Assembly: GCA_026396275.1 (NCBI GenBank)
Contig: JAPLXC010000002.1
Location: forward strand, 74,922 to 138,921
Direction of reading: 5' to 3'
DNA length: 64,000 nt
Source: Candidatus Moraniibacteriota bacterium
Lineage (GTDB): Bacteria > Patescibacteriota > Minisyncoccia > Moranbacterales > JAPLXC01
The notes under the pieces are model-generated. The model searched no databases, had not been told where the DNA came from, and saw only the letters and a program-made list of their open reading frames with translations. The translations under genes and the position numbers were made by a program. Below, in pieces: positions 18,593 to 54,878 of this stretch; within the stretch, counting starts at the first letter, position 1, and each line of letters starts with the position of its first letter.

Positions 18593-18596
18593 AATT

Positions 18597-36164: not shown

Positions 36165-36328
36165 AACAACTCTCTCGTTTTTGGCTCATTTCTAAAATAA
36201 AGGCGCGAAGACATTGTTGTAGAAAAAGGTCAAATTTATTATAATAAAAACGTAAGTATAAATTCTCAAGTTTGCTTGATATTTAAAAAATGAGAGCTAT
36301 TTAGCTAGGAATACTTAGGATCAAATAC

Positions 36329-36357
36329 TGGACAAGACAAAAAAAGTATGATATACT
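36329..36357 (+). promoter_or_regulatory. strong sigma70-like promoter (extended -10)
   Basis: TGGACA, 17-nt spacer, TGaTATACT. Confidence 0.5.
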
Positions 36358-36384
36358 ATAAATAACTGAAAGGGGGCGCGAAAG

Positions 36385-36424
36385 CGGCTTTTCAGGAAAA
36401 AAACGGGTGAAAGCCGTTTTTTTT
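36385..36424 (+). terminator. intrinsic terminator / leader hairpin about 30 nt downstream of the promoter (candidate attenuator or small RNA)
   Basis: cggcttt-(18-nt loop)-aaagccg followed by TTTTTTTT. Confidence 0.45.
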
Positions 36425-36487
36425 ATTTGTTTTTTCTTGAATATATTCAGTCTATTCAGATAGCTATTAAATTGAAACCAAATTTTT

Positions 36488-36694
36488 ATGGGTTATGTAA
36501 GAGTAAAAGATATTGAGAAAATAATAGATCGCGACCGCAACACTATTCTACGCTGGGAGCGGGAAGGAAAAATTCCGCCGCCTCAAAAAGACAGCCGGGG
36601 CTGGCGTTTTTACACGGAAACGGATATTGAAACTATCCGCCGCTATGTTGCCAAATCCAATCCTTATTATGGAAATTTCAACCAAAACTGTTAA
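36488..36694 (+). CDS. small MerR/excisionase-type HTH DNA-binding protein directly upstream of the giant gene
   Basis: 68 aa: VRVKDIEKIIDRDRNTILRWEREGKIPPPQKDSRGWRFYTETDIETIRRY, an HTH_17-like pattern. Confidence 0.5.
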   Translation: MGYVRVKDIEKIIDRDRNTILRWEREGKIPPPQKDSRGWRFYTETDIETIRRYVAKSNPYYGNFNQNC

Positions 36695-36741
36695 AGCCAG
36701 CTAATTTTTTGCCGTGTTTGGAGAAATAAAAATGAAAATCA

Positions 36742-39700
36742 ATGCTCAAGGAAAAATGCGAAAAAATTTACGGTAAAATAAAAAATTGGGCGATCATTGT
36801 CCGCGATTCTAGCCGGCGCCACTTCCCGCTGGTTTTGGCGATTATTTTTTTGACTCCGGCTTTTATTCTACTTTTTCTTTTTGTTAATTCGCAACTACAT
36901 AAGCAGTCTTCTTACGCGGCCACTTTTACTGGAAAAGTCAAAGTTTCCAAGCAGACAACGACTTTGTCAACCAGCGGGGACTGGTATACTTCCATGGCTC
37001 ATTCCGGCGACGGAGTCAACGGTGACGCGGAATCGGGCACTTTCAATCCAATTCATCCGGGCCAGGGAGCGGGAACCGAGCCGGGAGCTGGCGGAATCGC
37101 TATGGGCCATGTGGCCATGGGAGCAACAACCACTTACGCGGCCGCCCAGTTCATCGGTTTTAAACCAAGCGCCACAGGAAACTTGGACGGGGTCCAGCTG
37201 GTTTTTGAAAATTTGACTTCAACCAATCTTTCCAATGTGGACTTGGTGGTTGAATTTGTTCGTTTTCCCTCAGCGACGTATAGCGGGGGTTGGACCAATT
37301 ATGTGACCGGCACCCAAGGCGCTTATACATATCCTTCCGACACGCAAGTTTTGCGCCGGACGGTCTGGCAGTTCAATCAGGAGCTTTCCGGGGAAAACGC
37401 GGCGCCGGGTCAGTTCGGGCGGGCAACTTTTGACTTTCGCTTTGATCCACCGGTAGCAGTAACAACCGGCGGAGGGGCCGGCGATCATTACGGCATCCGG
37501 ATTATCAACATGGGCGCCAGCACTCCGGTTTTTGGCACTTGGGCGCAAGCGCCTCAGTCCAACGGCTTCCCTTCAATCAACGGCACGATCCGGACAATCG
37601 GCTTCAATGATCTTGATACAACTAACGCCCCAACCGTTACTATGCCAGTGGTTTTGGGAGGAAATACGGTTTTGACAACCGGCGCGATGGTGGCGGCTAA
37701 TTCGGTTCCGGGAATCGGATTGCCGACAGTGCGCAGAACGGAAAACGAACACTGGACAGCCACTTATTCTTCAGCCAATGGAAATTGGACAGTTGCTGGA
37801 TCGGTTTCCGGAACACAAACCAATAAATTAACTACATCCACTAATGGCGGAACCGGCGCCAGCTGGCTCAATGACAGCGCTGTCTATACCACTCTGACCT
37901 CGGACATTACCGGCACAACCAACAAACTTTGCGTGGATTCAATCACCGGTTTTGCGGCCAACCAATATATTGATGTTTGGGACAGCGATACGGCTTCGGC
38001 TCAATTTACTATTCTTTCAGTAAATTCTTCAGACGGCAGTTGTCCGTTAAGCGGACCGTCCATTACTACAACCGCCAACCTGACTAACACCAATAACTAC
38101 ACCCAATCCAAAAACGCCACCGTAGCCAGAACCACCTGGAAGCAAAGAATTATTCAGGGAGCAATCCAGGTCTTTACCCAGGATATGCCCTCAACCACTA
38201 AAATCTGCGTGGCCGATTCAAGCAGATTCAGCGCGCCGACAGCCGGAACAGCCAATAACATCGTGGTTTGGGACAATAACACAACAACAATCAACACCAA
38301 CCGCGTCGTATCCACTTCGCAGGCGGATGGAAGCTGTACCAGCAATAACAGCATTACAATATCAACAGCGATTACTGCCGGAACTTATACTACCGCTCAA
38401 AGCGCTTATGTGGCGGAATATTCGGCTCATCTTTCCAATTCGGCCGCACCGTCCAATGGAGCGGTTTTACGCTGGACGACTTTTAATCATCCGCAAAATC
38501 CAACCAATTCAACTTTGCTGGCGCGGACTACTTCAGTTAATTTGGCTTACGCTAAATCACAGTCGCCGGCCACTTCCAGCACCAACTATCCTTATCTATC
38601 CAACCGCCATATTTTCTTTGTGGCTTATGGCGACGCGGACACGACCGCGCCGGCTGACGGTGATATTGTTATCGTCGGCAACGGCAAATCCGATCCTGAT
38701 TCCGGCGATTCATCCAATTTGACCAGCGACATCAACTGGGCGACCAAGGAATCGCATGTGGTGACGATTGACCGCAGTTGGGACGCGCCGATGGCATATA
38801 GCGGAACCAACGCAGCGGCGGTGGGCGACGGCGCCGGTTCTCGTGCCAACTTTGCCGCCTGGAGCCAGAACGGCGGCTGGGTATCAGCGCTGGTTACTCC
38901 CAGTTCGCAATTGGGGATAGACAACAGCACCAACAAGCATTACCGGATTACCATTCCCGGAAAAATTGTGGTTGACTCGGACGCATCGGTGGCGCTTGGG
39001 AAATCCGGAGCAGCCATTCCGGAAAGTTCTGGCCACGACATATATTTTGACACGGTGAGTCCCGCGGCTTCAACGCTTTTGACTGTTGACTCGGCGGCTA
39101 CTACGACTTTGACCGTAGCTTCCACCACTAATTTTATGCCCGGAGACACGATTGTCTTGGACGATAACAATTCCGTTCCGATAACGAGAATTATCGCGGC
39201 GGTTGAAAATTCTACCACCATAACTTTAACCGCGGCGGCGGTAACCGGCTATACCGTGGCACAGAGCGCATTTATCGCCAAAGGTCCGACCACTGAACTG
39301 CCAACTGGTTCTGATAGAAGAGCCGGGATTTATACAATGACCGGCCTTAACGGAGCATCCACGCCGGCGCAAAGCAATACCCGTACCGGAAGAGTGGCGC
39401 TTTATGCCGACGGTTCGGAAGATTTCAGAACTTCCAAAAGTGATTTGGCAGTGGATGTTGACGGCAATATTGACACTGGATATTTAGGAAATAATTCAAC
39501 TGATGCCGGCAATACCTGGGTGGATGTGGAAGATGATGTAGTTGGCAACTGGCAGCCGCTGGATCAGGTGGCTGTTGCCGGAGGGACCAATCAGCTGGCG
39601 GACAATAATTATTCCTCAACTGAGTTGGGCGGGACGGATGACGCCAACCAGATGCCGGTTTGGACAGGAGCCACAACCAAGGTTGACGCCGGAGCCGGGG

Positions 39701-42700
39701 GCCGAAACGCTCTGCCGACGCCCAATATGGAAGTGGCCGAGATCGGCACGATTCCGATGACCAATATTTATAACAGCGATTATAACGGCGGATCGCCTTT
39801 GTATTCTTCCAATTACAACAATTCGTCCAGTTTGACGATTTTTAATGACGGCGCCAACACGGAAGTGAACGACGCGGTTTATTTTGGTGATCAGGGAAGT
39901 AATATGCCTTATGCTTTGGAATTCAATATTGGAACGGCCATGGTAGCCAGCGCCGATTATGTCTGGGAATACTATAAGTCCGGAGTCGGCTGGACGGAAT
40001 TTACTCCCCGGGACGCATATCTTTATCAAACCAGGACCGGAGTGACGCTTCCTTTGTCAGTGGATACGGTTAATAATTCTCTTGCGATTACTCTGGCAGA
40101 AGGCGGAACAGTTTTTGGGCTGGATCAAATTGTGATGATTGACGACAACGATTCCGATCCGATTTACCGCCGATTGGGAACTTCCGCTCCGACAGCGACC
40201 ACTTTAACTTTTTCTGAACCGGTTCCTTCCGGATATACAGTAGCGCAGGGAGCGACAGTTACGCGTTTGAACGGCGGCCAATGGCAGTCAATGGACCCGA
40301 CTGGAATTTTTACCAGTGGCACCGGCAGAAGGATTATTTCCTGGACACCTACGAACCTAAATGGTACTCCCGCCAAGACAACGGTAAACGGTGTTAGCGC
40401 CTATTGGGTGCGAGCTAGAATTTCCTCTTTTACTTCCTGGACCACTTCGCCAACCAATCAGACAACTCCGGTGGGAATGGGAGGAATAGAAAGAATGTCT
40501 TCAGGCGTGTTTAATGTTTCTTCAGGCGTTCAAGAAGCCAAAGTTTCCGAAGTGACGGCCGGGAGCAGTTTTGATCCCAATGAAACTTATATTTTAGAAT
40601 ACGGCAATTCTCCCAGCTGGACGCAAGTTCTGCCGATTGTGCCTTCGGCGCCGTATACCTGGCATATAAACAGTACCGGCATGTTAAGCCAAAATACGGC
40701 GACGGCTGATTTTCATACGGCTAACGGCGATTTGTCTTGGGGGAATTATACGGTGACAGCCAAAGTGCAGATGAGGACGGCCAATGACGCGACTTCCAGA
40801 AAAATCGGAGTGGTTTTGAGAAATTCGCTGGACGGCAATGGCTATGGAGCTTTAATTGAAAAAACCAGCTCCCAGCAAAGAGTCGGTCTTTATCCGATGG
40901 CTCTGGGCGCGGAAGGTACGGTTTTTGCCAACACTACCAAAGCCTTTTCGGAAAACAGCTGGTATTGGATCAAGGCTAATGTTACCGGCACTGGCGCTTC
41001 CACAGTCTTGAGCGCCAAGTTCTGGGCTGACGGATCAGGTGAACCGGGTAGCTGGGATGTGACTTACACGACCACGGCCGGACAAGGACTTTGGAATACC
41101 GGTAAAATTGGTCTTTTTGCCGACGCGATGATTGCCGATTTTGACGATGTTTCGGTGGACAACGGGTCGGTAGTTTTTTCTGATTCATTTACCAGCACCG
41201 GCACCTGGAAACTTAAAGGTTCTATTAATGGCGATTTGGGAACAATTACTCCCGGAACACCTTTTACCAGCAACTATATTAATTTCACTTTGAAGCATAA
41301 AGGCGGCTGGAATGGAACAATTAATCCGGAAATCGGAGATAAAATTTATATCAGTCCCACTTCAACCAGAAGCTACAAAGGTTTATCCGGAACAGGATCT
41401 TCGGCCATAACTACCAGCGACACGAACACGGTCTATGAAAATGTTGATTTTGAATGGAATCCGGGGAGTAGCAATTACACTGTGACTGGAAGTGCTACCG
41501 GCGCGATGGGAACGGCCACGCCCGGAAGCGCTTACACGGCCACTGGCGGAAAAATCGGTCTGACCATTCCCTCCGGATCTCCGACCGCCACTAAATTCGG
41601 AAACAGAATGCTTTTGCTTCAAGATAATCTGCGCAGAAACACCGGTTCGTGGGTTGGCAACAATGGTTTGGGAAGCGCGGCTTTGGTCTGGCCGTCTTAT
41701 ACCTTAACTTCCAGCGCCATCACGCCCCGCTACAATATTGAAGGTGTTAGCGGAACGGCCACGGCCCGGCAAAACGGCACGATTGATTTTTGGTTCAAGG
41801 CCAATTATTCCGGTTCGCCTTCTTCTGCCACTCATCCCAAGGGAATGTATCTGGTGGATTATGCCAACCAAGGAAATTCGGAACGTCTTTTTATTCGGCA
41901 TACAAACGATGGCTATCTGGAAGCGGCGGTATTTGGAGGAGCGACTCAAAACACATTGCTTCGGAAAAGTTTTTCCGCCACTGCCGGACAGTGGTATCAT
42001 TTCCGTTTGGCCTGGGATGAAACTTTAAATACCAAAAGAGCCTGGCTAGATGAAACAGCTTTCACCTCCGGCGAAGGGCAAGCTTCAACGGTGGGAACCA
42101 GAGGCGCTAATGCCGGAATTATAAGAATTGGAAATACTTGGACTTATGACGCGCCCTTTGATGGATCAATTGACGAGTTTGCTATTTTTGACGATGCGAT
42201 TGACACTTCCGACGCTTGCGATTGGGGAGTATCTGTGGGAATTCCAATTCCCAGCGCGGCCTGGACCAATGGCCAGACAGCCGGATGCGACGACGCGGAC
42301 AGCAACATCGGAACTAATATTTTCCGAGCCAGTTTTGATCAAACTATGAATCCGCAGGAAGGGTCAATTATGGCGGATTACGCTTTTGGCAATCCGGCCA
42401 TGATTTTCACCAACGGAGCTGATACCGGCAATGAAAGAATCAGAATAGTCACCTATCCGCAAAGAACGCGTGTTTGGGTGGACAATACCGGAGAAAAATA
42501 TACGCCTTCAGCCAGAATCAAATTCGGTTCCGGTTATGAAGAAAACGCGACTCTGGCCACGCTGGCCGGCTGGAGCCATAATTACACTTATCATCACAAG
42601 GCGGTCCGACAATCTTCTTCCAGCCCGACTTATTCGCCGGTTCTTAATCTTAAGCGCAATACTCACATCTGGTCGGTGGAACCAATAACGCAAAACGGGG

Positions 42701-45700
42701 CGACGATGGGCGCGCCGATCAATGCCGGTATGGGATATGGAATGGGAACAATCGGACTTTCAGGGTTGGGAACCATCAATTTTTCCGATGTTTCCATGGA
42801 AAACCAATATACCAATTTTGCGATTGTTACCAATCCCTTTACTTTTTTGGCGGCCAAGCCCGCACAAACGATTTCCAATTCAGTTTTCTATAATTTCTAC
42901 GACCGCGCCTACACCATTGCCAGTAAAACGCAGGGAACCAATTATGTGGGCGCTTATTTCGTCACCACTCATTTTGCCGCCGCCAACATCGGCAGTGGCT
43001 ATAACGCCAGTCTTTCCCAGAATGTCGGAATTGACGGCAGTATTTTTATGGGCAACCGTAACGCTTACGTGACTGTGCCGCCGGTGGCGGCTAACGGCGC
43101 GGCGTCTTTTTTCTCCGGCCGGCTGTATACGGTTCAAAACAGCGAATTTTATAACAACGGTGTCACCGGCGCCGGAACATCGGGCGCTTTGAACTTTTCT
43201 TCTGGCGTGGCGAAAGTGACGATTGCCGATAATATTTTTTCCATCAACACCAATGGCATCCGGCTTTACGGAAACTCGTTTTTTACCATGAATGACAATA
43301 TTTTTGAAGGCCATGTAGCGGATGATGTGACGACATTAGGCGCCAATTATGGCGCCGGCATCAGGGTAGCGCAAACCTCATCGTCAGTGGCGATCGTGGA
43401 TACGGACAGTATTTTCGGCCGGGGGCTTTGGAATGAGGCGGATGTCGGCTTGCCGCCCAACACCGGAACTTTTGAAGCTGAATCGCTCATCCAGTTTACC
43501 GGCGAGGGCAGCCAGTTGAGAAGTCCCATTTTGTTTGGAACGGCTGATTACGATAATATGCCGAGAGTCGCCGATCACTATCTGGGATCCACTATTCCGG
43601 GTACGGATATACGAGGAACCCATTCTACCAATGAAAAGAATATTATCAATGCCACCACTTTTGGCTATATGCGCACCACCGGAGCGGGCTTGCCGGATAC
43701 GCTTTTGCGCACCAGCGGGGGCTATGGCTGGCGGTTGGAACCGATCAATGCCGACATCGGATTGGACTATACAGCTAAGCTTGTAGGCGTGGCCGATAAG
43801 CCACTGGCGGCGACCGGCTATTTGAGAATCAATTCCAATTACGGCACGACTAATTTGCCGACTGTTACACTTTCCGGACTGGGAATGACTGGAGCCAATT
43901 TGACTTGGACAGCGGAGCCGACAGCGGACGAATGGCAGCAATTCGTGGTTTCCGGCACGCCGACAGAGTCAGCTTTAGCGGAACTCAAAATTTCCACCAA
44001 GCTGGATTATGTGGTATCCGATTCCGGCACGAGCGAAATTGTTTCCAATGCCACCGGGAATTATCTTCCGGCCTTGGTTGAAGATGTGGATAAATCCTGG
44101 ACGCCCAATCAATGGGTGGGATATAAATTCAAAGACGCCAACGGAAAAGTTTTTGATATCGTGAAAAATACCAGTCAGATTCTCTATCTCAAAGGCACGG
44201 TAGTTCCGCATCTATTAAGCACTACTTTCGCGGCCTTAACTCCGGGCGATTATGTCATTTATAACGAGCCGTATGTTTATCTGGATGATGTTTCGGTTTT
44301 GTCTGGAACAGTGGATACGGGAACTCTTGATTTTCATTCCAGTGGACAGCCGGTTTCTCCTTGGCTGGCGACCGGTCTTACGGCCGAAGGAGTTTGGAAC
44401 GCGCAGTTCAGCACTTTTTCCGACAGCGCCGGTTCTTTTGGTCAGCTTTTGGGTGACGCATTAGTAGCTCAGTACGCGGATGTTTCTGATCTTTCACCTA
44501 CAACAACCGAGTTCGATACCAGCTTAAGTTCTACGACCGATGATTTTTATCTAAACGGCGCGATTATTTTTACCGAAGGGCAAAATAAGGGAGCGGTCCG
44601 AAGAATTTCCGATTATACTGGTGCTTCAAAAACAATAACTGTTGACCCAGCCCTGTCTTTTGCTCCGGCTGATGAGGATCGATTTGCCATTTTGGCGGCG
44701 ACCGCTTCCAGCGGTGGAAGTGGAGGAGGAGCTACGGCGGCTGAAATTTGGAGCTATGCGATAAGAAGGCTTACCGACAGCACTTTGTCAGGCGGAGGAA
44801 CATTGGCAACACAGTCATATCTGGATACGATGAAGGCGGACATCATCGCTGAAATTGATGAAAATGAAGCTTTGATTAGCGGCCTTAACGACATATCGGC
44901 TGCCGATGTCTGGAGTTATGCTAATCGTTCCATCACCGATCCAGACGCGATTTGGGAATACGCTCTCACTTCCATCGGAGAAACCGGATCGGTTGGAAAA
45001 TTAATCAAGGACAATCTTGATGCCACTATCTCCAGCCGGGGAACCAGCGACTTGACGGCGGCCGATGTTTGGACGAACGCCACTCGAACTCTGACTGATT
45101 ATTCAACTGACGCTATTTCTCTGGCAGTTTGGCAAAATGCCACCAGAACATTAACTGCTTATGGAAACGATATAACCGCGGCGGATGTATGGAATGTTTT
45201 AAGTTCATCGCTTACCACAGTTGGAAGTATTGGCAAACAACTGGCGGAAAATGTGGATGTGGCAGTCTCTTCTCGAGCCTCCCAAGCTTCGCTGGACGCC
45301 TTAAATGATATTTCTGCTGCTGATGTCTGGAGCTATTCCAACCGAACGATTACTGATCCGGATAACATTTGGGAATACGCCCTCACTTCCATCGGAGAAA
45401 CCGGATCGGTTGGAAAATTAATCAAGGACAATCTTGATGCCACTATCTCCAGCCGGGGAACCAGCGACTTGACGGCGGCCGATGTTTGGCTGGCAACGGA
45501 AAGAACCTTAACTTCCAACGCTAATTTCAACGATCCGACCACAGCGCAAATTGCCACAGCCGTTTGGGGGGAAGCCAATAGAACTCTTACTAGTTACGGC
45601 AATGACATTACCGCTGCCGACGTTTGGAGCATATTAAGCTCATCACTAACTACAGTCGGTTCGATTGGCAAGCAGCTGGCGGAGAATGTAGATGTGGCGA

Positions 45701-48700
45701 CCTCCACGCGGGCTTCCCAATCTTCAGTAGATGCCCTAAATGATATTTCCGCGTCTGATGTATGGACTTACGCTACTAGAACTTTGACTGGTGAAGTGGC
45801 GCTTACTTCCGATTCCAGAAAAGCGATCTGGGACACGGCCTGTTCTATCCTCAATACTTCCGGTAGCGTGGGAAAACTGGTTTGCGACAATTTAGACGCA
45901 GCCGTTTCTTCCCGTTCGACGCTTACGGCCGCTGATGTCTGGAGCAGCGCTACTCGAACAATTACCAATTTGGAAAATCCGGCCCTTTCGGCGATTGCCA
46001 ACAGCGTTTGGAGCAATGCCACTCGCGAACTGACTGCCTATGGCAACGACATCACGGCGCAGGATGTTTGGGATGTTTTAACTTCCAGTATGACTACTAT
46101 TGATTCTATCGGAGAGCTCCTAATAACCAATGTGGATGAGGAAATTTCCTCCCGGTCATCCCAAAGCAGTCTGGATGATGTTTCAACCAATGTCAGTGAT
46201 ATTGAATCCAATGTGGATGTGCCGGTTTCAACCCGTTCTTCGCAGGCCAGTCTTGACACCCATGAATCGTCCGAATCAACTTTTAGAACCAATACAACCA
46301 ATACCCTATCCGACATTTCCAGCGATGTTGGCGATATTTACATTAATGTAGTGGCTATTCAGAGCGATCTCTCTTCCATTGATACGAAAATTGATACTCT
46401 AACAACCACTCTCAACTCCGTTGACGCGAAAATTGACACTCTTGACACTAATATTGACAGTATAAAAACAACCGTGGAAGACACCAATATTAAAGTCAGC
46501 GCCATCCAAACGGTGACTAACAGTATTCTTAATAAGTGGGGCAGTTATTCTGCCGCGGATATCATCGGCTATGTTGACGCGCTGGAAGATTATGTGGGAA
46601 CGCCGGATGACGAAGCCAGCGCAGAAACTCTTTTTGGAAGGATAAAGGAAGTAAAGGAAGCGACGGGAAGCGGCGGGACGATTGATTTAATTTACGCCCA
46701 AGTCCAGGCCACGCATAACAAGCTTCTGGACGTTGAGTTGGAATTGGGATATAACGGAAAAACCACCAGCGCCTATGACGATATCACGGCTGTTAAAAAT
46801 TATGTGGACACGGTGGAGAACAGTCTGGCGACTTTGGATTCAAGAACTTCCGATATTTCTTCTTCAGTGAGTGATATTTCATCCGATCTCAAAGACGTGA
46901 CTGACAAGATTGGAAAAGTCAGTTCAGATTCCTTTTCCCAGCATTTCGAGATCAAGAAAACAGATATTGATTATCTCAAAAATAAAGTGATTGAGCTTAA
47001 AGCTATCGCTGAAATAGACCGCCAGCTGATCGAAAGAACGATCAGCGAGCCGATAGTCAAAGTGATTATGGAATGGGGGTCGGTAGTGATTAAATTTATT
47101 ATTGTCAATCCTTCTGATTCAACTGATCAGAAAATTCCTTTCAAGGCCTATCTTCCCAAAGAAGTGCGTCAGGAATATATAATAGATCTGAGCGGGCTTT
47201 CCTTAAATTACGACGCGACTACAGAGCAATACTATGTTACCGCGGACATCGCACTTAAAGCTGGCGAGTCGGTAACGCGCGCGGTGGAAATAAAAGACAT
47301 CTGGATAATTAGCTATGACGAAATTGATTCCCTAAGAAAGCAAGCCGAAGAAATGGCAGTGGGATTGACCGATACTTTCTACAACGCGCAAGCCATAACC
47401 TTAAAGACTGATATTAATACCCGGCTGGATAAGGTTGCAAGAAAGCAAAAAGATAATAATGCCACTCCGCAAGACCATATCCTGGCTTATCGGGAAAATC
47501 AGGAGGAATTGAAAGCAATTAATGAAAATTTAAAAGGAATGAAGGATTTAGTTTTGAATTCCGGCACCGGGAAAAACTTCCTAGCCTCTATCGGGGGCAT
47601 TCAGACCTTTGCCACCTGGGGAATAGTCCTAATTTTAATTTTTGGCATGGGAGCTCTCGGGTTTTTCTACTACGCTCTCTGGAGGAAAAAAATCGTGTCC
47701 GATGGAAAGTCGGAAACCGGCGGGCTGCCAGCCGGCCAGAAAACGGATGATATGAATCCTGTCCAACCAGTAGTCACTCCTGGCGCTCCGAATCAAAATA
47801 TCGAGTTGCCGACACCTTCGCCGCTCGCTCTTCCGGGATTCAATTTTTCCTGGGCCAAAAAGATTGTTTTGGGGTTAGTTATCCTGTCCAAGGATATCTC
47901 GAGCCTTATATATAGCTTGTTCAAAAAAGTTGCGGCCAAGGTGGCTTCTCTTCCCAAGAAGGTCTTATTAGTCATAGGCATATTAGTCATCGTCACGGCT
48001 GGCACCCTGGCTTTCGTAAAATACCATGATTACCAGAAAGAAAAATCAGAAAAAGAAAAAGAGATTGTTTTAAGCGTTTCTCAAAGCCAGGTTCCGGATG
48101 AAGCGGATGAAAAGAAGAAAAAAGTCCTGGAATTAGTCGCTGAAATCGATAAAAAAGCCGGAGAAAAAGCGGAGATGAACAAAAAAATAGATGAGATAAT
48201 GAAAAAAGATGAGAATCCAGAGGATGCTTCGCAGGAGGAAAAAATAGAAAACAAATCCGAAGCTTCCAAATCCAGCCGGCTGACCGTAAAAGACACGCCT
48301 ACCGGCTGGCTGAATGTTCGTGAGAGCGCTTCAACCGGCGGGAATGTTATTGGCAAGGTTTATCCGAAAGAAAGTTATAATTATATCGAAAATCAAGATA
48401 ACTGGTATAGGATAGTTCTAAAAGATAAAAAAGAAGGCTGGGTTAACGGTGAATATGTTCAATTGGAAGAAACGGTTGGCGGCGCAACTACGGAAAATAA
48501 TTCAGGGGAGACTCCATCTGTCAAGGCAAAAGAAAATGAACTAACTATCAAAGATACGCCCACGGGCTGGCTGAATGTTAGAGAACAGCCCTCTGCTAGC
48601 GGCGCACTGGTAGCTAAAATTTATCCGGGAGAAAAGTATATTTATTTGGAATCCGAAAACGGCTGGTACAAAATAATTCTCAAAGATAAAAAAGAAGGCT

Positions 48701-49200
48701 GGGTTATCGGAGAGTATGTGAAAACAAATAGTCCGGCTTTGTTAGGCAGCAATGACAATCAGGAAAAAGTCGAGGGAGCGAGCATCGGCGATACCGGAGA
48801 GGCGGCAATCAGACAGACAAATATGGAGTTTTACGGTGTTTACGAAAATCCGTCTTATACGGAAAAAATAATCGCTCGGGCTTATCCGGGAGAAATCTAT
48901 TCTTTTTCAGAAATTCTGGGCGGCTGGTACAAAATAATCCTCAAAGATAAAAAAGAAGGCTGGATCCTGGGCGAGTATATTGAGCCGGCCGGCAATTTGG
49001 AAAACCGGGAATTCGTGAAAATTATTCCCAATGACAGCTCTTATGTTAATATCAGGGAGATTCCCTCTCAATCAGGGAAAGTTGTCAAGAAAATTTATGT
49101 TAGCAACCAGTTTGAAAAACTTGAAGAAAAAGATGGTTGGGTTAAAATAGAACTTTTGGACGGAAGTTTTGGGTGGGTATCAAACCAATTCGCTAAATAA
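36742..49200 (+). CDS. giant (4152-aa) membrane-anchored surface protein. Order: N-terminal TM; Thr/Ser/Gly/Asn-rich beta regions; two LamG/ConA-like lectin domains; PbH1 parallel beta-helix repeats; three ~140-aa DVW-motif super-repeats; a coiled-coil; two TM helices; four C-terminal SH3b domains.
   Basis: A continuous 12.46-kb ORF. TM at aa 27-49. LamG-like regions ...WYWIKANVTG...IADFDDVSV and ...DGSIDEFAIFD. Beta-helix NSEFYNNGVTGAG...ADNIFSINTNGIRLYGNSFFTMNDNIFEGH. Tandem repeats AADVW..R.LT. TM helices at about aa 3614 and 3745. SH3b copies TGWLNVRE...WY(R/K)I(V/I)LKDKKEGWV. Confidence 0.8.
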   Translation: MLKEKCEKIYGKIKNWAIIVRDSSRRHFPLVLAIIFLTPAFILLFLFVNSQLHKQSSYAATFTGKVKVSKQTTTLSTSGDWYTSMAHSGDGVNGDAESGTFNPIHPGQGAGTEPGAGGIAMGHVAMGATTTYAAAQFIGFKPSATGNLDGVQLVFENLTSTNLSNVDLVVEFVRFPSATYSGGWTNYVTGTQGAYTYPSDTQVLRRTVWQFNQELSGENAAPGQFGRATFDFRFDPPVAVTTGGGAGDHYGIRIINMGASTPVFGTWAQAPQSNGFPSINGTIRTIGFNDLDTTNAPTVTMPVVLGGNTVLTTGAMVAANSVPGIGLPTVRRTENEHWTATYSSANGNWTVAGSVSGTQTNKLTTSTNGGTGASWLNDSAVYTTLTSDITGTTNKLCVDSITGFAANQYIDVWDSDTASAQFTILSVNSSDGSCPLSGPSITTTANLTNTNNYTQSKNATVARTTWKQRIIQGAIQVFTQDMPSTTKICVADSSRFSAPTAGTANNIVVWDNNTTTINTNRVVSTSQADGSCTSNNSITISTAITAGTYTTAQSAYVAEYSAHLSNSAAPSNGAVLRWTTFNHPQNPTNSTLLARTTSVNLAYAKSQSPATSSTNYPYLSNRHIFFVAYGDADTTAPADGDIVIVGNGKSDPDSGDSSNLTSDINWATKESHVVTIDRSWDAPMAYSGTNAAAVGDGAGSRANFAAWSQNGGWVSALVTPSSQLGIDNSTNKHYRITIPGKIVVDSDASVALGKSGAAIPESSGHDIYFDTVSPAASTLLTVDSAATTTLTVASTTNFMPGDTIVLDDNNSVPITRIIAAVENSTTITLTAAAVTGYTVAQSAFIAKGPTTELPTGSDRRAGIYTMTGLNGASTPAQSNTRTGRVALYADGSEDFRTSKSDLAVDVDGNIDTGYLGNNSTDAGNTWVDVEDDVVGNWQPLDQVAVAGGTNQLADNNYSSTELGGTDDANQMPVWTGATTKVDAGAGGRNALPTPNMEVAEIGTIPMTNIYNSDYNGGSPLYSSNYNNSSSLTIFNDGANTEVNDAVYFGDQGSNMPYALEFNIGTAMVASADYVWEYYKSGVGWTEFTPRDAYLYQTRTGVTLPLSVDTVNNSLAITLAEGGTVFGLDQIVMIDDNDSDPIYRRLGTSAPTATTLTFSEPVPSGYTVAQGATVTRLNGGQWQSMDPTGIFTSGTGRRIISWTPTNLNGTPAKTTVNGVSAYWVRARISSFTSWTTSPTNQTTPVGMGGIERMSSGVFNVSSGVQEAKVSEVTAGSSFDPNETYILEYGNSPSWTQVLPIVPSAPYTWHINSTGMLSQNTATADFHTANGDLSWGNYTVTAKVQMRTANDATSRKIGVVLRNSLDGNGYGALIEKTSSQQRVGLYPMALGAEGTVFANTTKAFSENSWYWIKANVTGTGASTVLSAKFWADGSGEPGSWDVTYTTTAGQGLWNTGKIGLFADAMIADFDDVSVDNGSVVFSDSFTSTGTWKLKGSINGDLGTITPGTPFTSNYINFTLKHKGGWNGTINPEIGDKIYISPTSTRSYKGLSGTGSSAITTSDTNTVYENVDFEWNPGSSNYTVTGSATGAMGTATPGSAYTATGGKIGLTIPSGSPTATKFGNRMLLLQDNLRRNTGSWVGNNGLGSAALVWPSYTLTSSAITPRYNIEGVSGTATARQNGTIDFWFKANYSGSPSSATHPKGMYLVDYANQGNSERLFIRHTNDGYLEAAVFGGATQNTLLRKSFSATAGQWYHFRLAWDETLNTKRAWLDETAFTSGEGQASTVGTRGANAGIIRIGNTWTYDAPFDGSIDEFAIFDDAIDTSDACDWGVSVGIPIPSAAWTNGQTAGCDDADSNIGTNIFRASFDQTMNPQEGSIMADYAFGNPAMIFTNGADTGNERIRIVTYPQRTRVWVDNTGEKYTPSARIKFGSGYEENATLATLAGWSHNYTYHHKAVRQSSSSPTYSPVLNLKRNTHIWSVEPITQNGATMGAPINAGMGYGMGTIGLSGLGTINFSDVSMENQYTNFAIVTNPFTFLAAKPAQTISNSVFYNFYDRAYTIASKTQGTNYVGAYFVTTHFAAANIGSGYNASLSQNVGIDGSIFMGNRNAYVTVPPVAANGAASFFSGRLYTVQNSEFYNNGVTGAGTSGALNFSSGVAKVTIADNIFSINTNGIRLYGNSFFTMNDNIFEGHVADDVTTLGANYGAGIRVAQTSSSVAIVDTDSIFGRGLWNEADVGLPPNTGTFEAESLIQFTGEGSQLRSPILFGTADYDNMPRVADHYLGSTIPGTDIRGTHSTNEKNIINATTFGYMRTTGAGLPDTLLRTSGGYGWRLEPINADIGLDYTAKLVGVADKPLAATGYLRINSNYGTTNLPTVTLSGLGMTGANLTWTAEPTADEWQQFVVSGTPTESALAELKISTKLDYVVSDSGTSEIVSNATGNYLPALVEDVDKSWTPNQWVGYKFKDANGKVFDIVKNTSQILYLKGTVVPHLLSTTFAALTPGDYVIYNEPYVYLDDVSVLSGTVDTGTLDFHSSGQPVSPWLATGLTAEGVWNAQFSTFSDSAGSFGQLLGDALVAQYADVSDLSPTTTEFDTSLSSTTDDFYLNGAIIFTEGQNKGAVRRISDYTGASKTITVDPALSFAPADEDRFAILAATASSGGSGGGATAAEIWSYAIRRLTDSTLSGGGTLATQSYLDTMKADIIAEIDENEALISGLNDISAADVWSYANRSITDPDAIWEYALTSIGETGSVGKLIKDNLDATISSRGTSDLTAADVWTNATRTLTDYSTDAISLAVWQNATRTLTAYGNDITAADVWNVLSSSLTTVGSIGKQLAENVDVAVSSRASQASLDALNDISAADVWSYSNRTITDPDNIWEYALTSIGETGSVGKLIKDNLDATISSRGTSDLTAADVWLATERTLTSNANFNDPTTAQIATAVWGEANRTLTSYGNDITAADVWSILSSSLTTVGSIGKQLAENVDVATSTRASQSSVDALNDISASDVWTYATRTLTGEVALTSDSRKAIWDTACSILNTSGSVGKLVCDNLDAAVSSRSTLTAADVWSSATRTITNLENPALSAIANSVWSNATRELTAYGNDITAQDVWDVLTSSMTTIDSIGELLITNVDEEISSRSSQSSLDDVSTNVSDIESNVDVPVSTRSSQASLDTHESSESTFRTNTTNTLSDISSDVGDIYINVVAIQSDLSSIDTKIDTLTTTLNSVDAKIDTLDTNIDSIKTTVEDTNIKVSAIQTVTNSILNKWGSYSAADIIGYVDALEDYVGTPDDEASAETLFGRIKEVKEATGSGGTIDLIYAQVQATHNKLLDVELELGYNGKTTSAYDDITAVKNYVDTVENSLATLDSRTSDISSSVSDISSDLKDVTDKIGKVSSDSFSQHFEIKKTDIDYLKNKVIELKAIAEIDRQLIERTISEPIVKVIMEWGSVVIKFIIVNPSDSTDQKIPFKAYLPKEVRQEYIIDLSGLSLNYDATTEQYYVTADIALKAGESVTRAVEIKDIWIISYDEIDSLRKQAEEMAVGLTDTFYNAQAITLKTDINTRLDKVARKQKDNNATPQDHILAYRENQEELKAINENLKGMKDLVLNSGTGKNFLASIGGIQTFATWGIVLILIFGMGALGFFYYALWRKKIVSDGKSETGGLPAGQKTDDMNPVQPVVTPGAPNQNIELPTPSPLALPGFNFSWAKKIVLGLVILSKDISSLIYSLFKKVAAKVASLPKKVLLVIGILVIVTAGTLAFVKYHDYQKEKSEKEKEIVLSVSQSQVPDEADEKKKKVLELVAEIDKKAGEKAEMNKKIDEIMKKDENPEDASQEEKIENKSEASKSSRLTVKDTPTGWLNVRESASTGGNVIGKVYPKESYNYIENQDNWYRIVLKDKKEGWVNGEYVQLEETVGGATTENNSGETPSVKAKENELTIKDTPTGWLNVREQPSASGALVAKIYPGEKYIYLESENGWYKIILKDKKEGWVIGEYVKTNSPALLGSNDNQEKVEGASIGDTGEAAIRQTNMEFYGVYENPSYTEKIIARAYPGEIYSFSEILGGWYKIILKDKKEGWILGEYIEPAGNLENREFVKIIPNDSSYVNIREIPSQSGKVVKKIYVSNQFEKLEEKDGWVKIELLDGSFGWVSNQFAK
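44870..46130 (+). repeat. three tandem near-identical repeats of about 420 bp inside the giant gene. Some stretches over 100 bp are 100% identical between copies.
   Basis: For example 44958-45070 and 45378-45490 are identical (cctcacttccatcggagaaaccggatcggttggaaaattaatcaaggacaatcttgatgccactatctccagccggggaaccagcgacttgacggcggccgatgtttgg). Confidence 0.85.
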
Positions 49201-49216
49201 TTATAAATATAAATTT

Positions 49217-50188
49217 ATGAAAAAGTTTTTTATTTTGCATCGGAAGCTTTGTTTCATTGTATTTTTTTTGATTATTTTTATGCCGGCTTCGGGTGTGGCT
49301 TTTCTGAATTCCTTAAAAATTTACAGTATGGAGAAAATTAATATTCAAGAACAGTCTATGTTTTTAGCAAAATTAACAGCAGTTCTTCAGGAACAAACTA
49401 TCAACGAAACTCGGGAATTTCTTTCCTTTTTGTCCAAGCTTCCGCAGTTGCAAGATTCTGAGTCTTCTAAATGCGATGAAATTTTGGCTAAGCTTTTAAA
49501 GCAGTATAAAGAATATACGAATATCACTTTGCTCGGGGCAGACGGAAATCTCATTTGCAGCGGACTTGAAAACGACCAATCAATCAATGTCGCTTATCAG
49601 CCCTATTTCCAGAGAATGCTCGAAGAACGGGATTTTATAACGGGGAAATATGTGGCTGGAACAATAAGTAATAAACCAATCATTCCTTTTATCCAGCCAA
49701 TTTTTAATTCTCAAGGTGAAATTAAAAGTGCTGTCGTGGCTTTTCGAGATTTATCGTGGCTTTATGATCTCAACAGCAAAATTTCTTTGCCTTACGGAAC
49801 ATCACTTTTGATTTTTGACGAAAACGGAGTAGTTTTAGATTGCTTTTCCGAAGAAAAAGATTGCGTTGGGAAAAATCTTAAAGGTAAATCTTTAGTGCGA
49901 AAGGCTATAGAAAATGGAAATGAAGGCGCGGTGTACGCCGAAGGATTAGATGAAAATGAAAAAATTTACCTGTTTATTTCTACTTCTCCCGACTCTTCTC
50001 AAGATAAAATTTATATAGCAGTGGGGAGAGAGGATGTATTGCCTTTTTCAGTTCTTTTTTCCAATCTTTTATTAAACTTTATTTTGCTTTTAGCCGTAGC
50101 CATTTTAGCCTGGTTGGTGGCTAAAAAAGAGTGTTCTTCCTGCAGTTATTATAATCCCCCAAGGGATGAAAAAGATTTGCATAGCTGA
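49217..50188 (+). CDS. Cache-like extracellular sensor domain protein with a C-terminal TM and no output domain
   Basis: Signal/TM, then a double-Cache-like fold (...AYQPYFQRMLEERDFITGKYVAGTISNKPIIPFIQPIF...), then TM LLLNFILLLAVAILAWLVA and an 18-aa tail. The start was moved from the track's 49169 to ATG 49217 to avoid overlap with the giant gene. Confidence 0.45.
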   Translation: MKKFFILHRKLCFIVFFLIIFMPASGVAFLNSLKIYSMEKINIQEQSMFLAKLTAVLQEQTINETREFLSFLSKLPQLQDSESSKCDEILAKLLKQYKEYTNITLLGADGNLICSGLENDQSINVAYQPYFQRMLEERDFITGKYVAGTISNKPIIPFIQPIFNSQGEIKSAVVAFRDLSWLYDLNSKISLPYGTSLLIFDENGVVLDCFSEEKDCVGKNLKGKSLVRKAIENGNEGAVYAEGLDENEKIYLFISTSPDSSQDKIYIAVGREDVLPFSVLFSNLLLNFILLLAVAILAWLVAKKECSSCSYYNPPRDEKDLHS

Positions 50189-50219
50189 TTTGTTTGCCTC
50201 GGTCAATTAGGAACTCATA

Positions 50220-50675
50220 TTATTTGAGTAAAAACATAACGGATTGATTATAGAAATAATGGATGAGCATCGCCAGAAGTGCGGCTGGAAAAATAAGGCG
50301 GCGGTTTTTTTGAGCAGAAAGCAGAATAATCAGAATAGTGAATATATGCAAGATTGAAGCCAAGAAAAATCTTTCAATAAAGATAGCGGGCGATCCATAA
50401 AGGATTGAATTGGAAAGGTAAAAAAAATTTTCTGAAAGAGCAAAGAAAAATCCCAGAAAAATAGTCAGCTTTATTTGAAATGATTTCCCGGGAATTGTTA
50501 GGATTAAAAAAACCATAGTGGCCTTAAACATTTCTTCTAGAATGTAAGGATAAGGAATAATTTTTTCAATAGGCAATAAAATAACTGGCGCGATTAAAGC
50601 TAAAATCGGCAACAGAAAAAAAAGATAAGAGACATCAGTTTTATTTTGATTATTATTTTTGAGAAATGGATTCAT
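50220..50675 (-). CDS. hypothetical integral membrane protein
   Basis: 151 aa with about 4 TM segments. Confidence 0.3.
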   Translation of the reverse strand: MNPFLKNNNQNKTDVSYLFFLLPILALIAPVILLPIEKIIPYPYILEEMFKATMVFLILTIPGKSFQIKLTIFLGFFFALSENFFYLSNSILYGSPAIFIERFFLASILHIFTILIILLSAQKNRRLIFPAALLAMLIHYFYNQSVMFLLK

Positions 50676-54601: not shown

Positions 54602-54878
54602 CTGACAACTTTACAACTGACAACTGATAACTGATGACGAAAAACTAGCAACAAGACGGCTCGCTGAAAATCGGGCTGTTTTTATTGCATTTTTTATTCT
54701 TTCTGTTATATTAAGGGCAGAAAATTGTAGTACCTTTTAGAGCGTTAGGATTGACAAAACAAGAAATTTGAACTTTAATAGAGCATCAAGATCTTTAACA
54801 ATCTATAAGTTAGCTATTTTCGAAAGAGAAACACTTAAAAAAACAGCCAATATTTTGGCGGAAAACAAGGAGGGAAAG

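Follow-up and report, generated by a model that had tools for sequence, protein, structure and literature searches.

A predicted giant lectin-domain surface protein and its PrsW-family neighbour in a Moraniibacteriota bacterium

Results

A 4152-residue protein with full-length relatives

We analyzed a 64,000-nucleotide stretch of contig JAPLXC010000002.1 (the window) from a Candidatus Moraniibacteriota bacterium, an uncultured organism of tiny size. Between positions 36742 and 49200 of its + strand lies a single 12.46-kb ORF that encodes 4152 amino acids without an internal stop, just as the initial annotation had described. This ORF is a real gene: about ten orthologues with 43-75% identity and lengths of 3639-4253 aa, all of them on Moraniibacteriota-like CPR contigs, were collinear with the protein over its full length. 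The protein is a member of a small family of giant proteins, of a kind that is interesting but not unprecedented. Sequence comparison also bore out the proposed CPR origin of the DNA, as the pcrA gene that flanks the giant-gene block was 55-66% identical to its counterparts in Moraniibacteriota genomes. The conservation profile of the protein combined a variable tip with a strongly conserved transmembrane (TM) helix 2.

Head, stalk and anchor

A hydrophobic segment was found by hydropathy at residues 26-53 (36817..36921, +). When orthologue N-termini were aligned, an RR(H/N)xPL motif ahead of it and an SYA|ATFTG site behind it proved to be conserved. Because of this conserved site the segment resembles a cleavable signal; a signal peptide is the probable reading, with a signal anchor as the alternative. 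Cleavage would leave the giant protein with an anchor at its C-terminal end, and not at its N-terminus as first annotated. The h-region is very hydrophobic and ~21 residues long, such that it might be retained and serve as another anchor, which would make a loop of the ectodomain.

The first part of the distal head (residues ~61-1328; 36922..40725, +) gave no match in Pfam, PHROG, NCBIfam or PDB and its fold was not recognisable, and just 38 matches were retrieved among 1.84 × 10^9 representative proteins. Self-comparison uncovered an internal duplication (residues 727-878 and 1050-1213), and the first ~800 residues were the least conserved stretch of the ectodomain. Next to this part, an AF2 model analyzed with Foldseek contained a ConA-like jelly roll without Pfam match (residues ~1329-1474; 40726..41163, +). 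The model segment was of moderate confidence (pLDDT 60-83), and the best PDB matches of the region were tandem LG/galectin pairs over ~500-600 columns (best E 7e-7). Another lectin domain, at residues 1675-1822 (41764..42207, +), matched Pfam Laminin_G_3 (E 1.1e-11), which was present in 5 of the 7 giant-family members, and the family profile had a weak match to a pentraxin (3flp, E 0.014). The two LamG/ConA-like modules that had been annotated are hence one Pfam LamG domain and one jelly roll seen in the AF2 model alone.

Residues ~2040-2330 (42859..43731, +) are a probable right-handed parallel beta-helix. Pfam beta-helix models had no match in the 4152-aa protein, and the TIGR03804 match (residues 2159-2189, E 0.012) stayed under the cut-off of that model. 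Two of the 7 family members had a Pfam Beta_helix match (best E 1e-10), and in the orthologue P0124 this model matched residues 2184-2338, which map to residues ~2060-2225 here, above cut-off (E 1e-7). Short-strand periodicity was visible in the AF2 model that covers the jelly roll and this region (mean pLDDT 48), with a local pLDDT of just 50-68. HMM searches with LamG, PbH1 and SH3b models thus returned one LamG and four SH3b domains, while the PbH1 repeats of the initial annotation are weaker than it stated and have indirect support only, as from the homologous position in P0124. At the head-stalk junction, residues 2602-2652 (44545..44697, +) form a small Phage_BR0599-like domain (E 0.086 here), which 3 of the 7 orthologues carry (best E 1.6e-7).

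Self-comparison recovered three DVW super-repeats of ~140 residues (2707-2845, 2846-2990 and 2991-3138; 44860..46155, +), as annotated, all of them alpha-helical. At the DNA level, however, the copies were not the near-identical ~420-bp repeats that had been reported: 206 nt were 86% identical (spacing 417) and 232 nt 71% identical (spacing 435), TRF reported no array in the region and simple-sequence tracts were absent. Repeat number did vary, from 0 to 3 copies across orthologues, but the suggested proneness to phase or size variation found no support in repeats that are only 71-86% identical. Moreover, the orthologue P0121, which is just 69% identical overall, shares the arrangement of three copies down to the u2-specific SNANFNDPTTAQIATAVW insert, which indicates that the array is old and stable. 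Structure prediction of the repeats with AF2 yielded short helices (mean pLDDT 60) without a match among PDB folds. With more than 517 homologues in CPR, the DVW repeats are, by sequence similarity, a large CPR family. Their motifs recur in genuine phage contigs, in virion-region proteins near baseplate and portal genes; a tblastn search of the DVW segment against 50,697 phage genomes gave no match. The annotated coiled-coil stalk was confirmed by a heptad scan, whose signal was limited to residues 3176-3268 and 3338-3410 (46267..46971, +); coiled-coil and fibritin-type profile matches were sub-threshold.

The stalk is followed by a membrane-proximal domain of no known family (residues ~3430-3535; 47029..47346, +; conservation 0.58-0.72), which judging from its sequence is beta-rich and which is common to the shorter relatives P0035 and P0160. 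Hydropathy placed TM helix 2 at residues 3613-3647 (47578..47682, +; conservation 0.73, unusually high) and TM helix 3 at residues 3730-3762 (47929..48027, +), in agreement with the two helices annotated near residues 3614 and 3745. A charge count of the loops suggests that the basic loop between them (residues 3648-3729) is cytoplasmic. The C-terminus consists of the four expected SH3b domains (SH3_3, E 4e-39; 48235..49197, +), located by self-comparison at residues 3832-3907, 3923-3994, 4007-4081 and 4089-4152. They matched EntA/EntFM-type wall-binding models, the giant-family profile matched the PDB SH3b structure 2kt8, and we predict that the four domains lie outside the cytoplasm, where they would bind the cell wall.

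Upstream region

Upstream of the giant gene we located a match to a sigma-70-like promoter (TGGACA-17 nt-TATACT, the -10 being preceded by TG; 36329..36357, +; 10 of 12 positions matching) and two hairpins (36366..36432, +; MFE -24.5 kcal/mol, z -2.8 against shuffles). In the second hairpin (36396-36424) an A-tract, stem, loop, stem and T-run follow each other, which makes it terminator-like in both directions. Similar A/T-flanked hairpins were found in the pcrA-xer spacers of relatives, and most simply this one would be a bidirectional terminator of pcrA. Promoter-like sites numbered 4 in the region, which is no enrichment over an expectation of 2.8 +/- 2.0; for terminator-like sites the count was 3 and the expectation 0.9 +/- 0.9. 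An Rfam search of the leader gave no family match, and neither the leader nor the promoter match and hairpin showed conservation of sequence or structure across 100 related loci. The next gene (36488..36694, +), 48 nt upstream of the giant gene and on the same strand, encodes the annotated 68-aa excisionase/MerR-like protein, a winged HTH of the MerR superfamily with a DNA-binding domain only (Pfam MerR_1 E 5e-10, MerR 7e-7, HTH_17 2e-4, Exc 2e-4). Just 2 of ~10 lineages have a small HTH gene ahead of the giant gene: this one, and L086-88, where a 59-aa HTH_17 gene lies 6 nt upstream of the orthologue. It was absent from six other loci.

Downstream neighbours and the 15.8-kb insertion

Directly downstream lies the gene for the orphan Cache sensor that had been annotated (49217..50188, +), a TM-dCache_1-TM protein of 323 aa (E 6e-19) that lacks an output domain and ends in a 22-aa tail. 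Translation probably begins at the ATG at 49217 and not at the TTG at 49169. Cache orthologues directly follow the giant gene in L083/84 and L090.

On the opposite strand, 50220..50675 (-) encodes a mini PrsW-family intramembrane protease (151 aa, ~5 TM; Pfam PrsW-protease E 2e-6, above cut-off). The catalytic-type motifs EExxK, SEN..YL, LHxxT and HxxxN were invariant in an alignment of these PrsW-like proteins. In each of the 12 giant-family loci for which sequence downstream was available, a PrsW-like gene (139-170 aa) comes after the giant gene (among them L081, L082, L083, L085, L086, L089-L092, L094 and L103). The short relatives P0035 and P0160, whose only common part with the giant protein is the C-terminal anchor module, have a PrsW-like neighbour as well, and DVW proteins ending in MG2 and dockerin have none. 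A further gene (50653..51588, -) encodes a membrane-anchored class-A beta-lactamase-like or PBP-like serine hydrolase of 311 aa (Beta-lactamase2 E 3e-44) with SLLK, SDN and KYG motifs in its translation; orthologues adjoin the giant gene in L083, L089, L091, L092 and L094.

Compared with ~30 related genomes, a 15.8-kb block (36165..51978) is inserted between pcrA and xer and missing from the conserved backbone order G5-ksgA-(ubiA)-pcrA-xer-CHAP-virB6. No direct repeats were found at the flanks of the block, and its GC3 was within the range of its neighbours. The block has a GC excess at codon position 2, which reflects the T/S/A/G-rich protein. The initial annotation had not included the PrsW-like gene that is strictly conserved, the beta-lactamase-like gene that recurs, the lineage-specific insertion or the cleavable-looking N-terminal signal; its observations were otherwise partly confirmed and its interpretation partly supported.

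Discussion

Our data make it probable that the giant protein forms a lectin-tipped fibre on the surface of the Moraniibacteriota cell, held by both membrane and wall, and its PrsW neighbour may process it. The overall anatomy is that of the adhesin proposed initially, with a lectin and beta-helix head, a stalk of repeats and coiled coil, a membrane anchor and wall-binding SH3b domains. We infer that the protein would be exported via its N-terminal signal, with cleavage after SYA. The first ~2600 residues would then form a distal head, built from beta-sandwich modules without a known family, a pair of ConA/LamG-type jelly rolls and the right-handed beta-helix. This tip would recognise, and possibly cleave, carbohydrates, and may contact glycans of a partner or host cell or of a surface. 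Residues ~2660-3420 would provide an extended stalk of alpha-helical DVW super-repeats and coiled coil, and the membrane-proximal domain and highly conserved TM helix would hold the fibre in the membrane. After the cytoplasmic loop and the second TM helix of this anchor, the four SH3b domains on the outside would fasten the base of the fibre to the peptidoglycan of the same cell. PrsW possibly acts on the giant protein at the conserved TM/juxtamembrane region, in maturation, shedding or quality control, and both the Cache protein, which lacks an output, and the beta-lactamase-like wall enzyme may be frequent accessory partners.

The same parts could be read as mainly an enzyme, with the beta-helix as polysaccharide lyase or hydrolase (a tailspike-like depolymerase) that acts on the envelope of a host or prey or on environmental polymers, and the rest of the protein positioning it. 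The family-level support for the beta-helix, the lectin modules that flank it and the link between giant proteins of other ultra-small predatory bacteria and cell-wall degradation (bioRxiv 10.1101/2023.11.21.568195) point in this direction. Nevertheless, we consider it unlikely, as no catalytic family was matched in Pfam, NCBIfam or PDB, the beta-helix model is too poor for active-site inspection, and beta-helices also serve as purely binding or structural modules. That the ORF is a chimera or a product of collapsed repeats is extremely improbable: full-length collinear orthologues were obtained from independent samples and assemblers, including 691- and 841-kb contigs, the divergence of the DVW DNA repeats makes them easy to resolve, and their layout is shared with P0121. 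These findings outweigh the metagenome-type sequence, a scaffold gap within the DVW region of the relative L081, and the family member P0122, which terminates in an unrelated Peptidase_M32 segment.

A derivation of the 15.8-kb block from a mobile element or prophage, in which the excisionase-like HTH would mark the island and the giant protein would be phage-fibre-derived cargo, is distinctly unlikely. The insertion does lie beside a tyrosine recombinase, the cassette occupies a different chromosomal site in each lineage, and in L086 it begins just past tRNA-like genes and an HTH_17/Xis-like gene; the DVW motifs in phage contigs and the Phage_BR0599-like domain fit as well. Yet the block lacks integrase, replication and virion genes, xer is a conserved backbone gene outside the insert, and the flanks and GC3 are unremarkable. 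PHROG structural families had no match, nor did the DVW segment in the phage genomes, and the signal, TM anchors and wall-binding domains are typical of a cellular surface protein. The dedicated promoter-leader-HTH arrangement of the initial annotation, with a leader ending at 36424 as attenuator or small RNA and the HTH protein as specific regulator of the giant gene, is unlikely too. The promoter-like and terminator-like matches do exist where they had been placed, the leader folds better than its shuffles, and the HTH gene lies close upstream here and in one other lineage. On the other hand, the number of promoter-like matches was within the range of chance, the A- and T-tracts resemble those of bidirectional pcrA-xer spacer terminators, and both Rfam and the 100 related loci were negative. 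In L086 the HTH gene comes ~30 nt after a promoter-like site and no hairpin separates the two, and six orthologous loci have no HTH gene at all.

The surface-fibre reading can be compared with known systems. Fibrillar adhesins have an adhesive tip, a stalk of repeats with variable copy number and a cell anchor. The giant protein likewise has a variable lectin-type tip, stalk repeats that vary among orthologues and an anchor at the opposite end; its stalk, however, is alpha-helical DVW and coiled coil instead of Ig-like beta-sandwich repeats, and its anchor is a TM hairpin with SH3b domains instead of LPXTG/sortase, T1SS or an autotransporter. In Bacillus subtilis, PrsW is the site-1 protease of the anti-sigma factor RsiW. 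There, as here, a multi-pass PrsW with EExxK and H-containing motifs has a genetic link to a protein that is anchored in the membrane and has an extracytoplasmic domain, but PrsW has ~218 aa against 139-170 aa here, where no sigma or anti-sigma factor is nearby and a giant structural protein would be the substrate. The ten longest proteins of Vampirococcus lugosii (1392-4163 aa) are giant membrane proteins that were proposed to be host-attachment fibres (PMC8080830). They resemble the present protein in their ultra-small CPR origin, size class, predicted membrane location, interaction or adhesion domains and proposed role in host recognition and attachment. Compared by description, their domains are WD40, PKD, integrin, fibronectin and DUF11, whereas LamG, beta-helix, DVW and SH3b are found here; unlike V. 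lugosii, this Moranbacteria lineage has no known host, and a conserved PrsW partner was not described for V. lugosii.

The DVW repeat itself occurs in other contexts. CPR DVW-MG2-dockerin proteins (P0001-P0120; 600-950 aa) carry 1-3 copies of the ~140-aa super-repeat at 40-60% identity, but combine it with a small Ig-like N-domain, MG2 and dockerin in place of TM hairpin, coiled coil and SH3b, and their genes lie downstream of tatC-tatA without a PrsW neighbour. Phage fibre-like proteins on the IMG/VR contigs L098 and L099 have 'LNDI(S/T)AADVW..TRxLT' and 'IADAVWDE..H..G(S/T)xG' repeats and share the short motifs of the giant protein, including an SNANFNDPTxAxIAxAVW stretch. These proteins are 480-520 aa long, are encoded in phage structural-gene regions, differ in unit length (~38 aa in L098) and have no anchor modules.

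Giant gene and its orthologues

The giant gene (36742..49200, plus strand) is a single uninterrupted reading frame of 4152 codons. An N-terminal extension like that of the orthologues was considered and rejected as impossible, since no start codon lies between the preceding stop and the one at which the frame already opens. Looking up the exact protein sequence gave no match, and neither did a word-indexed search with aa 1250-2400, in an index that evidently lacks the giant orthologues. This empty result is no evidence of uniqueness, because an exhaustive HMMER search later recovered them. That search, run with aa 55-1250 against 1.84 billion representative proteins, returned only 38 matches, some of them full-length orthologues (3639-4253 aa). 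Adding a metagenome scan brought the total to about ten independent orthologous loci (L082-L094), whose proteins are collinear with the window protein along its whole length at 43-75% identity. The giant frame proposed from the sequence alone was thus confirmed as real by its lack of interruption and its full-length collinear orthologues. An assembly artefact is very unlikely, given that the orthologues come from independent assemblies, among them contigs of 691 and 841 kb.

In a conservation profile of the family, values within the ectodomain were lowest over the distal ~800 residues (0.26-0.48). Most conserved were aa 1000-1250, aa 2350-2650, the membrane-proximal domain (aa ~3450-3500) and the first C-terminal transmembrane (TM) helix (0.73); the cytoplasmic loop, the last TM helix and the SH3b linker were poorly conserved. 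Two family members deserve a separate remark. At L086 (5194-17105, also in L087 and L088) the orthologue is split into two overlapping frames, one of 939 (or 914) aa and one of 3034 aa, and the switch between them falls near the equivalent of aa ~735. Judging from its recurrence in contigs of several samples, this frameshift is real (a split gene, a pseudogene or recoding) and not a one-off error. In the 2732-aa member P0122, the C-terminal ~70 aa match Peptidase_M32 (E 1.6e-26), which is probably a chimeric gene call or misassembly in the source.

Head of the protein

Pfam searches with the full-length protein recognised only four C-terminal SH3_3 domains, and searches with overlapping 450-aa segments added one domain, Laminin_G_3 at aa ~1675-1822 (E 1e-11). 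We assigned a module to the LamG/ConA group if it had either a profile match or a jelly-roll fold. The second lectin module belongs there by profile (45.5 bits against a cut-off of 27.6). The first gave no profile match and is assigned with lower confidence by its predicted fold. In an AF2 model of aa 1260-2420, which was based on a seven-sequence alignment and was poor overall (mean pLDDT 48), the better-defined beta-sandwich segments lay at aa ~1329-1474 and ~1679-1779. When the model was compared with the PDB by Foldseek, tandem LG or galectin pairs, for example neurexin L2-L3, came out best (E 7e-7); the pLDDT of the segment that supports module 1 was 60-83. Both LamG/ConA-like modules of the initial annotation can therefore be kept at these two levels of confidence. 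Among seven family members, Laminin_G_3 was found in five and a small Phage_BR0599-like domain in three.

The right-handed beta-helix is only indirectly supported in the window protein. We asked for an above-threshold hit to either Beta_helix (PF13229) or para_beta_helix (TIGR03804), or for a confident model. The window protein gave a sub-threshold TIGR03804 match at aa 2159-2189 (E 0.012, 15.3 bits, cut-off 19.45) and no match to the Pfam beta-helix models, and the pLDDT of 50-68 over the putative region did not confirm the fold structurally. Beta_helix was found in two of the seven family members (best E 1e-10); in P0124 the match at residues 2184-2338 (32.1 bits, cut-off 25.9) corresponds to aa ~2060-2225 in the window protein. 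Pfam, PHROGs, NCBIfam and PDB sequence searches, run on nine or ten overlapping segments, assigned no family to aa 61-1328 or aa 2340-2600, and self-comparison revealed an older internal duplication (aa 727-878 versus 1050-1213).

Stalk and DVW repeats

Self-comparison resolved three super-repeats of ~140 aa at aa 2707-3138, named after their DVW motif. At the protein level, identity is 78% between copies 1 and 2 and 48-60% between either of these and the third. Describing the underlying DNA repeats as near-identical was an overstatement: identity was 86% over 206 nt and 71% over 232 nt, and TRF called no array. An HMM of the DVW unit counted three copies in the window and in L082, two in L091, one in seven other orthologues and none in L085, from which it follows that stalk length varies in evolution. 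To this extent the suggested variation in repeat number holds. Phase variation through the repeats is not supported: the three-copy layout and a copy-2-specific insert, SNANFNDPTTAQIATAVW, are common to the window protein and P0121 (the giant protein of L082) despite an overall identity of only 69%, which argues that the array is old and stable, and there are no simple-sequence tracts. Coiled-coil periodicity was restricted to aa 3176-3268 and 3338-3410 in a heptad scan.

The DVW region has more than 517 database homologues, mostly CPR proteins of 600-950 aa with a signal, a small Ig-like domain, one to three DVW super-repeats, MG2 and a dockerin. The repeat falls under none of the Pfam, NCBIfam or PHROG families; it is an unannotated family, abundant in CPR and shared with phages. 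AF2 modelling on a 91-sequence alignment predicted runs of short alpha-helices (pLDDT 60), and a PDB fold search with this model found no match. In two genuine phage contigs, proteins are built from the same DVW-type motifs. In L098 (7575-9020), upstream of a baseplate-wedge gene, about seven units of ~38 aa read LNDI(S/T)AADVW..TRELTAGGVTAIQ (also written LNDI(S/T)AADVW..TRxLT). In L099 (7128-8684), between the terminase and portal genes, they read ...RTLTSNANFNDPTAATIADAVWDE..H..GSFG or IADAVWDE..H..GxFG. A tblastn search of the INPHARED phage genomes with the DVW region gave no match. The stalk thus consists of a fibre-type repeat that CPR cells share with (presumably CPR) phages. A phage tail fibre or tailspike would be expected to show homology to phage structural families and to lie in a virion gene module. 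The giant protein does not fit this description: it has only short repeat motifs in common with phage proteins, its PHROG structural matches were not significant except for coiled-coil noise, and there are no phage genes around it in its block.

Other stalk elements and DVW contexts were also seen. P0121 (aa ~3180-3400) and a further orthologue, P0125 (aa ~2080-2230), carry an extra array of a ~13-aa repeat, TD(T/S)I(N/D)W(G/S/N/A)D(I/V)(T/S)G(I/L)K, as a second variable stalk module that is absent from the window protein. Three DVW proteins outside the giant family (P0035, P0002 and P0057) each lie directly downstream of tatC-tatA (L081 7378-12170, L095 5011-8823, L096 4821-7920). In L095 and L096, tatC-tatA is preceded by ~945-aa and 200-290-aa proteins without a Pfam match, and the arrangement looks like a conserved CPR cluster.

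Anchor and export signal

Hydropathy analysis gave three strong hydrophobic segments, at aa 26-53, 3613-3647 and 3730-3762. Within aa 23-60 (36808-36921), most orthologues show a conserved RR(H/N)(F/L/Y)PL(F/V)LA motif just ahead of the N-terminal hydrophobic segment, and after it a basic c-region with an AxA-like site. The paired arginines may represent a twin-arginine (Tat)-like signal or a plain positive-inside feature. At the other end, the conserved C-terminal module consists of the coiled coil, the proximal domain and FLASIGGIQTFATWGI. For SH3b domains we asked for repeated C-terminal modules above the PF08239 gathering score; the profile matched four stretches with 132.9 bits (cut-off 27), self-comparison also separated four units, and NCBIfam wall-binding EntA/EntFM models matched the same region. 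The four SH3b domains and most other domain calls of the initial annotation were hence borne out by profile searches, self-comparison, hydropathy and the heptad scan.

As a working definition, a fibrillar adhesin combines a surface-anchoring signal, a stalk with a variable number of repeats and an adhesive domain distal to the anchor. The predicted counterparts here are a TM hairpin with SH3b domains as a non-canonical anchor, the zero to three DVW units among orthologues and the lectin-type domains.

A PrsW-like partner and other neighbours

The flanking housekeeping genes differ at every orthologous locus (UDG/pth, gyrA/L32, wzy/mreB, femAB-like, ndk). A PrsW-family membrane protein of 136-170 aa directly follows the giant gene at all loci with downstream sequence (the window, L082, L083/84, L085, L086-88, L089-L092 and L094). 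In the window it is encoded at 50220..50675 (minus strand). We required PF13367 above cut-off together with conserved EExxK and histidine motifs within TM helices: the window protein scored 28 bits (cut-off 23.5), and EExxK, LHxxT and HxxxN are invariant in six homologues, as is SEN..YL in the homologue alignment, which places the product in the PrsW family of predicted intramembrane proteases. A PrsW gene also adjoins the short relatives P0035 (L081) and P0160 (L103), which share only the coiled-coil/proximal-domain/TM-loop-TM module. In contrast, DVW proteins ending in MG2 and dockerin follow tatC-tatA and have no PrsW neighbour, nor do more distant proximal-domain proteins beside ATP synthase, which indicates that the PrsW link is specific to the C-terminal anchor module. 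We found no literature linking PrsW with Patescibacteria.

The gene at 50653..51588 (minus strand) matches Beta-lactamase2 (E 2.8e-44). Class A beta-lactamase-like or PBP-like proteins are marked by this profile and by SxxK, SDN and K(T/S)G motifs; here SLLK and SDN are present and the third motif is KYG rather than KTG, so the product is predicted to be of this type. The gene recurs in six loci. Directly after the giant gene, an ORF starting most plausibly at ATG 49217 encodes a TM-dCache_1-TM protein with a 22-aa tail. A Cache transducer would have an extracytoplasmic Cache domain between two TM helices and a cytoplasmic output domain (HK, MCP, GGDEF etc.); the Cache domain and both helices are there and the output domain is absent, just as first described. 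Since the same output-less form occurs in orthologous loci L083 and L090, comparison indicates that the gene is a real short form and not a pseudogene. It recurs in three loci.

An insertion between pcrA and xer

The flanking pcrA/uvrD helicase shares 55-66% identity with its counterparts in MAGs of Candidatus Moraniibacteriota and other Patescibacteria, in agreement with the CPR assignment made at the outset. In about 30 relatives the gene order is G5 protein, ksgA, (ubiA), pcrA, xer (opposite strand), LysM/CHAP hydrolase, VirB6/TrbL-like protein and orf341, with pcrA and xer only ~25-400 bp apart. In the window, pcrA ends at 36164 and xer at 51979, and the 15.8 kb between them hold the hairpin region and the HTH, giant, Cache, PrsW-like and beta-lactamase-like genes. 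By gene order this block is an insertion relative to the relatives, and none of its genes had a homologue in 80 related loci.

The giant gene has raised G+C. The excess sits at codon position 2 (0.53), as a consequence of a Thr/Ser/Ala/Gly-rich protein, and GC3 (0.45-0.54) lies within the range of neighbouring genes, so we rejected a foreign-composition signal. The insertion borders have no flanking direct repeats of at least 10 nt, and the block carries no integrase of its own, the nearby xer being conserved backbone. Repeats and GC3 thus give no sign of recent foreign origin or of a classical integrative element. The small HTH gene in the block likewise does not qualify as an excisionase, a small wHTH protein beside a cognate integrase and att sites (Exc 21.5 bits against a cut-off of 23, HTH_17 22.1 against 27).

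Beyond xer, 53396-58513 encodes a LysM/CHAP hydrolase, a 184-aa ORF, a VirB6/TrbL-like protein of 661 aa and orf341, which stay together beside xer in most Moranbacteria loci. They probably belong to patescibacterial T4SS-like machinery, which one study reportedly describes. The beta-lactamase-like gene and xer are separated by 390 nt of non-coding sequence (51589-51978), which contains strong local hairpins, e.g. GCTTCCGCC...GGCGGAAGC, and had no Rfam match and no similarity in related loci.

A model for the giant fibre

To our knowledge, how CPR/Patescibacteria recognise and attach to partners is largely unknown outside Saccharibacteria, and we know of no cultured representative of Moranbacteria. 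The locus offers a candidate attachment fibre, whose variable, lectin-bearing tip could help to predict a host or ligand or serve as bait for one. The protein would be exported via its N-terminal signal, with the conserved SYA|ATFTG-like sequence after the RR(H/N)xPL motif as the putative cleavage site. Its lectin and beta-helix head might bind, and perhaps cut, glycans on a partner, while the DVW and coiled-coil stalk would be long enough to span the wall and any S-layer. The conserved TM helix would anchor the fibre; beyond it, the chain would form a basic loop in the cytoplasm, cross the membrane again in a second TM helix and end outside in SH3b domains that may grip the cell's own peptidoglycan. 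The miniature PrsW would process the giant protein, and their genetic link could reflect a new maturation or shedding mechanism.

Taken further, the giant fibre and the mini-PrsW might form an undescribed, dedicated CPR substrate-protease pair with the Cache and beta-lactamase-like proteins as accessories, the DVW repeat being a new alpha-helical fibre module exchanged between CPR and phages. We offer this reading tentatively and hold it, as a whole, to be unlikely. The protease would recognise and cut the unusually conserved TM2/juxtamembrane segment, so that the fibre is matured or released, and the output-less Cache protein and beta-lactamase-like wall enzyme may link deployment of the fibre to how the cell wall or a host surface is faring. 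The logic of such a pair would be analogous to that of sortase/exosortase systems. 

As for the attachment-fibre model itself, something similar has been proposed for giant membrane proteins of the CPR predator Vampirococcus (PMC8080830). The window protein resembles these in its proposed mechanism, and fibrillar adhesins in general, but differs from both by its helical stalk, unusual anchor and conserved protease partner. Giant CPR surface or attachment proteins are thus already known as a kind; new here are the specific family, its partners and its modular evolution. Three leads stand out: a PrsW-like partner that is strictly conserved, a DVW fibre repeat that phages also have, and the insertion in a conserved syntenic block beside a probable patescibacterial T4SS-like cluster.

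Region upstream of the giant gene

The HTH gene at 36488..36694 encodes 68 aa that match MerR_1 (5e-10) and, weakly, HTH_17 and Exc. A MerR regulator has an N-terminal wHTH followed by a C-terminal coiled-coil dimerisation/effector region (~120-150 aa); the protein consists of the wHTH alone (MerR_1 profile positions 2-48 of 69) and resembles short Xis/HTH_17-type proteins instead. Of the excisionase/MerR-like label, the MerR_1 similarity stands; a full MerR regulator it is not, and Exc remains below cut-off.

A dedicated promoter-leader arrangement was also proposed, with the leader as a candidate attenuator or small RNA. Matches to promoters and terminators do exist, in numbers that chance would account for. 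The second hairpin, with an A-tract on one side and a T-tract on the other, has the bidirectional-terminator form seen in the pcrA-xer spacers of relatives. An attenuator or known small RNA should match Rfam or recur, in sequence or structure, ahead of orthologous genes; the best Rfam E-value was 0.66, far below gathering, about 100 related loci showed no similarity to the leader or hairpin, and the L086 region upstream of its HTH gene had nothing like them. Dedicated regulation is therefore not supported. The simplest reading is the pcrA terminator followed by an ordinary promoter region, next to which a ~65-nt small RNA from the leader is conceivable.

Small HTH genes lie upstream of the giant gene in only two loci, the window and L086-88. 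At L086 ~4560-4730, visual inspection of the alignment picked out two tRNA-like sequences that directly precede the cassette of HTH_17, giant and PrsW genes. Elsewhere in the window, 14 tRNA genes occupy ~16.5 kb (3191-19738), with tight clustering at 10036-12621; two of them, both tRNA-Ser(CGA) on the minus strand, are separated by 236 bp.
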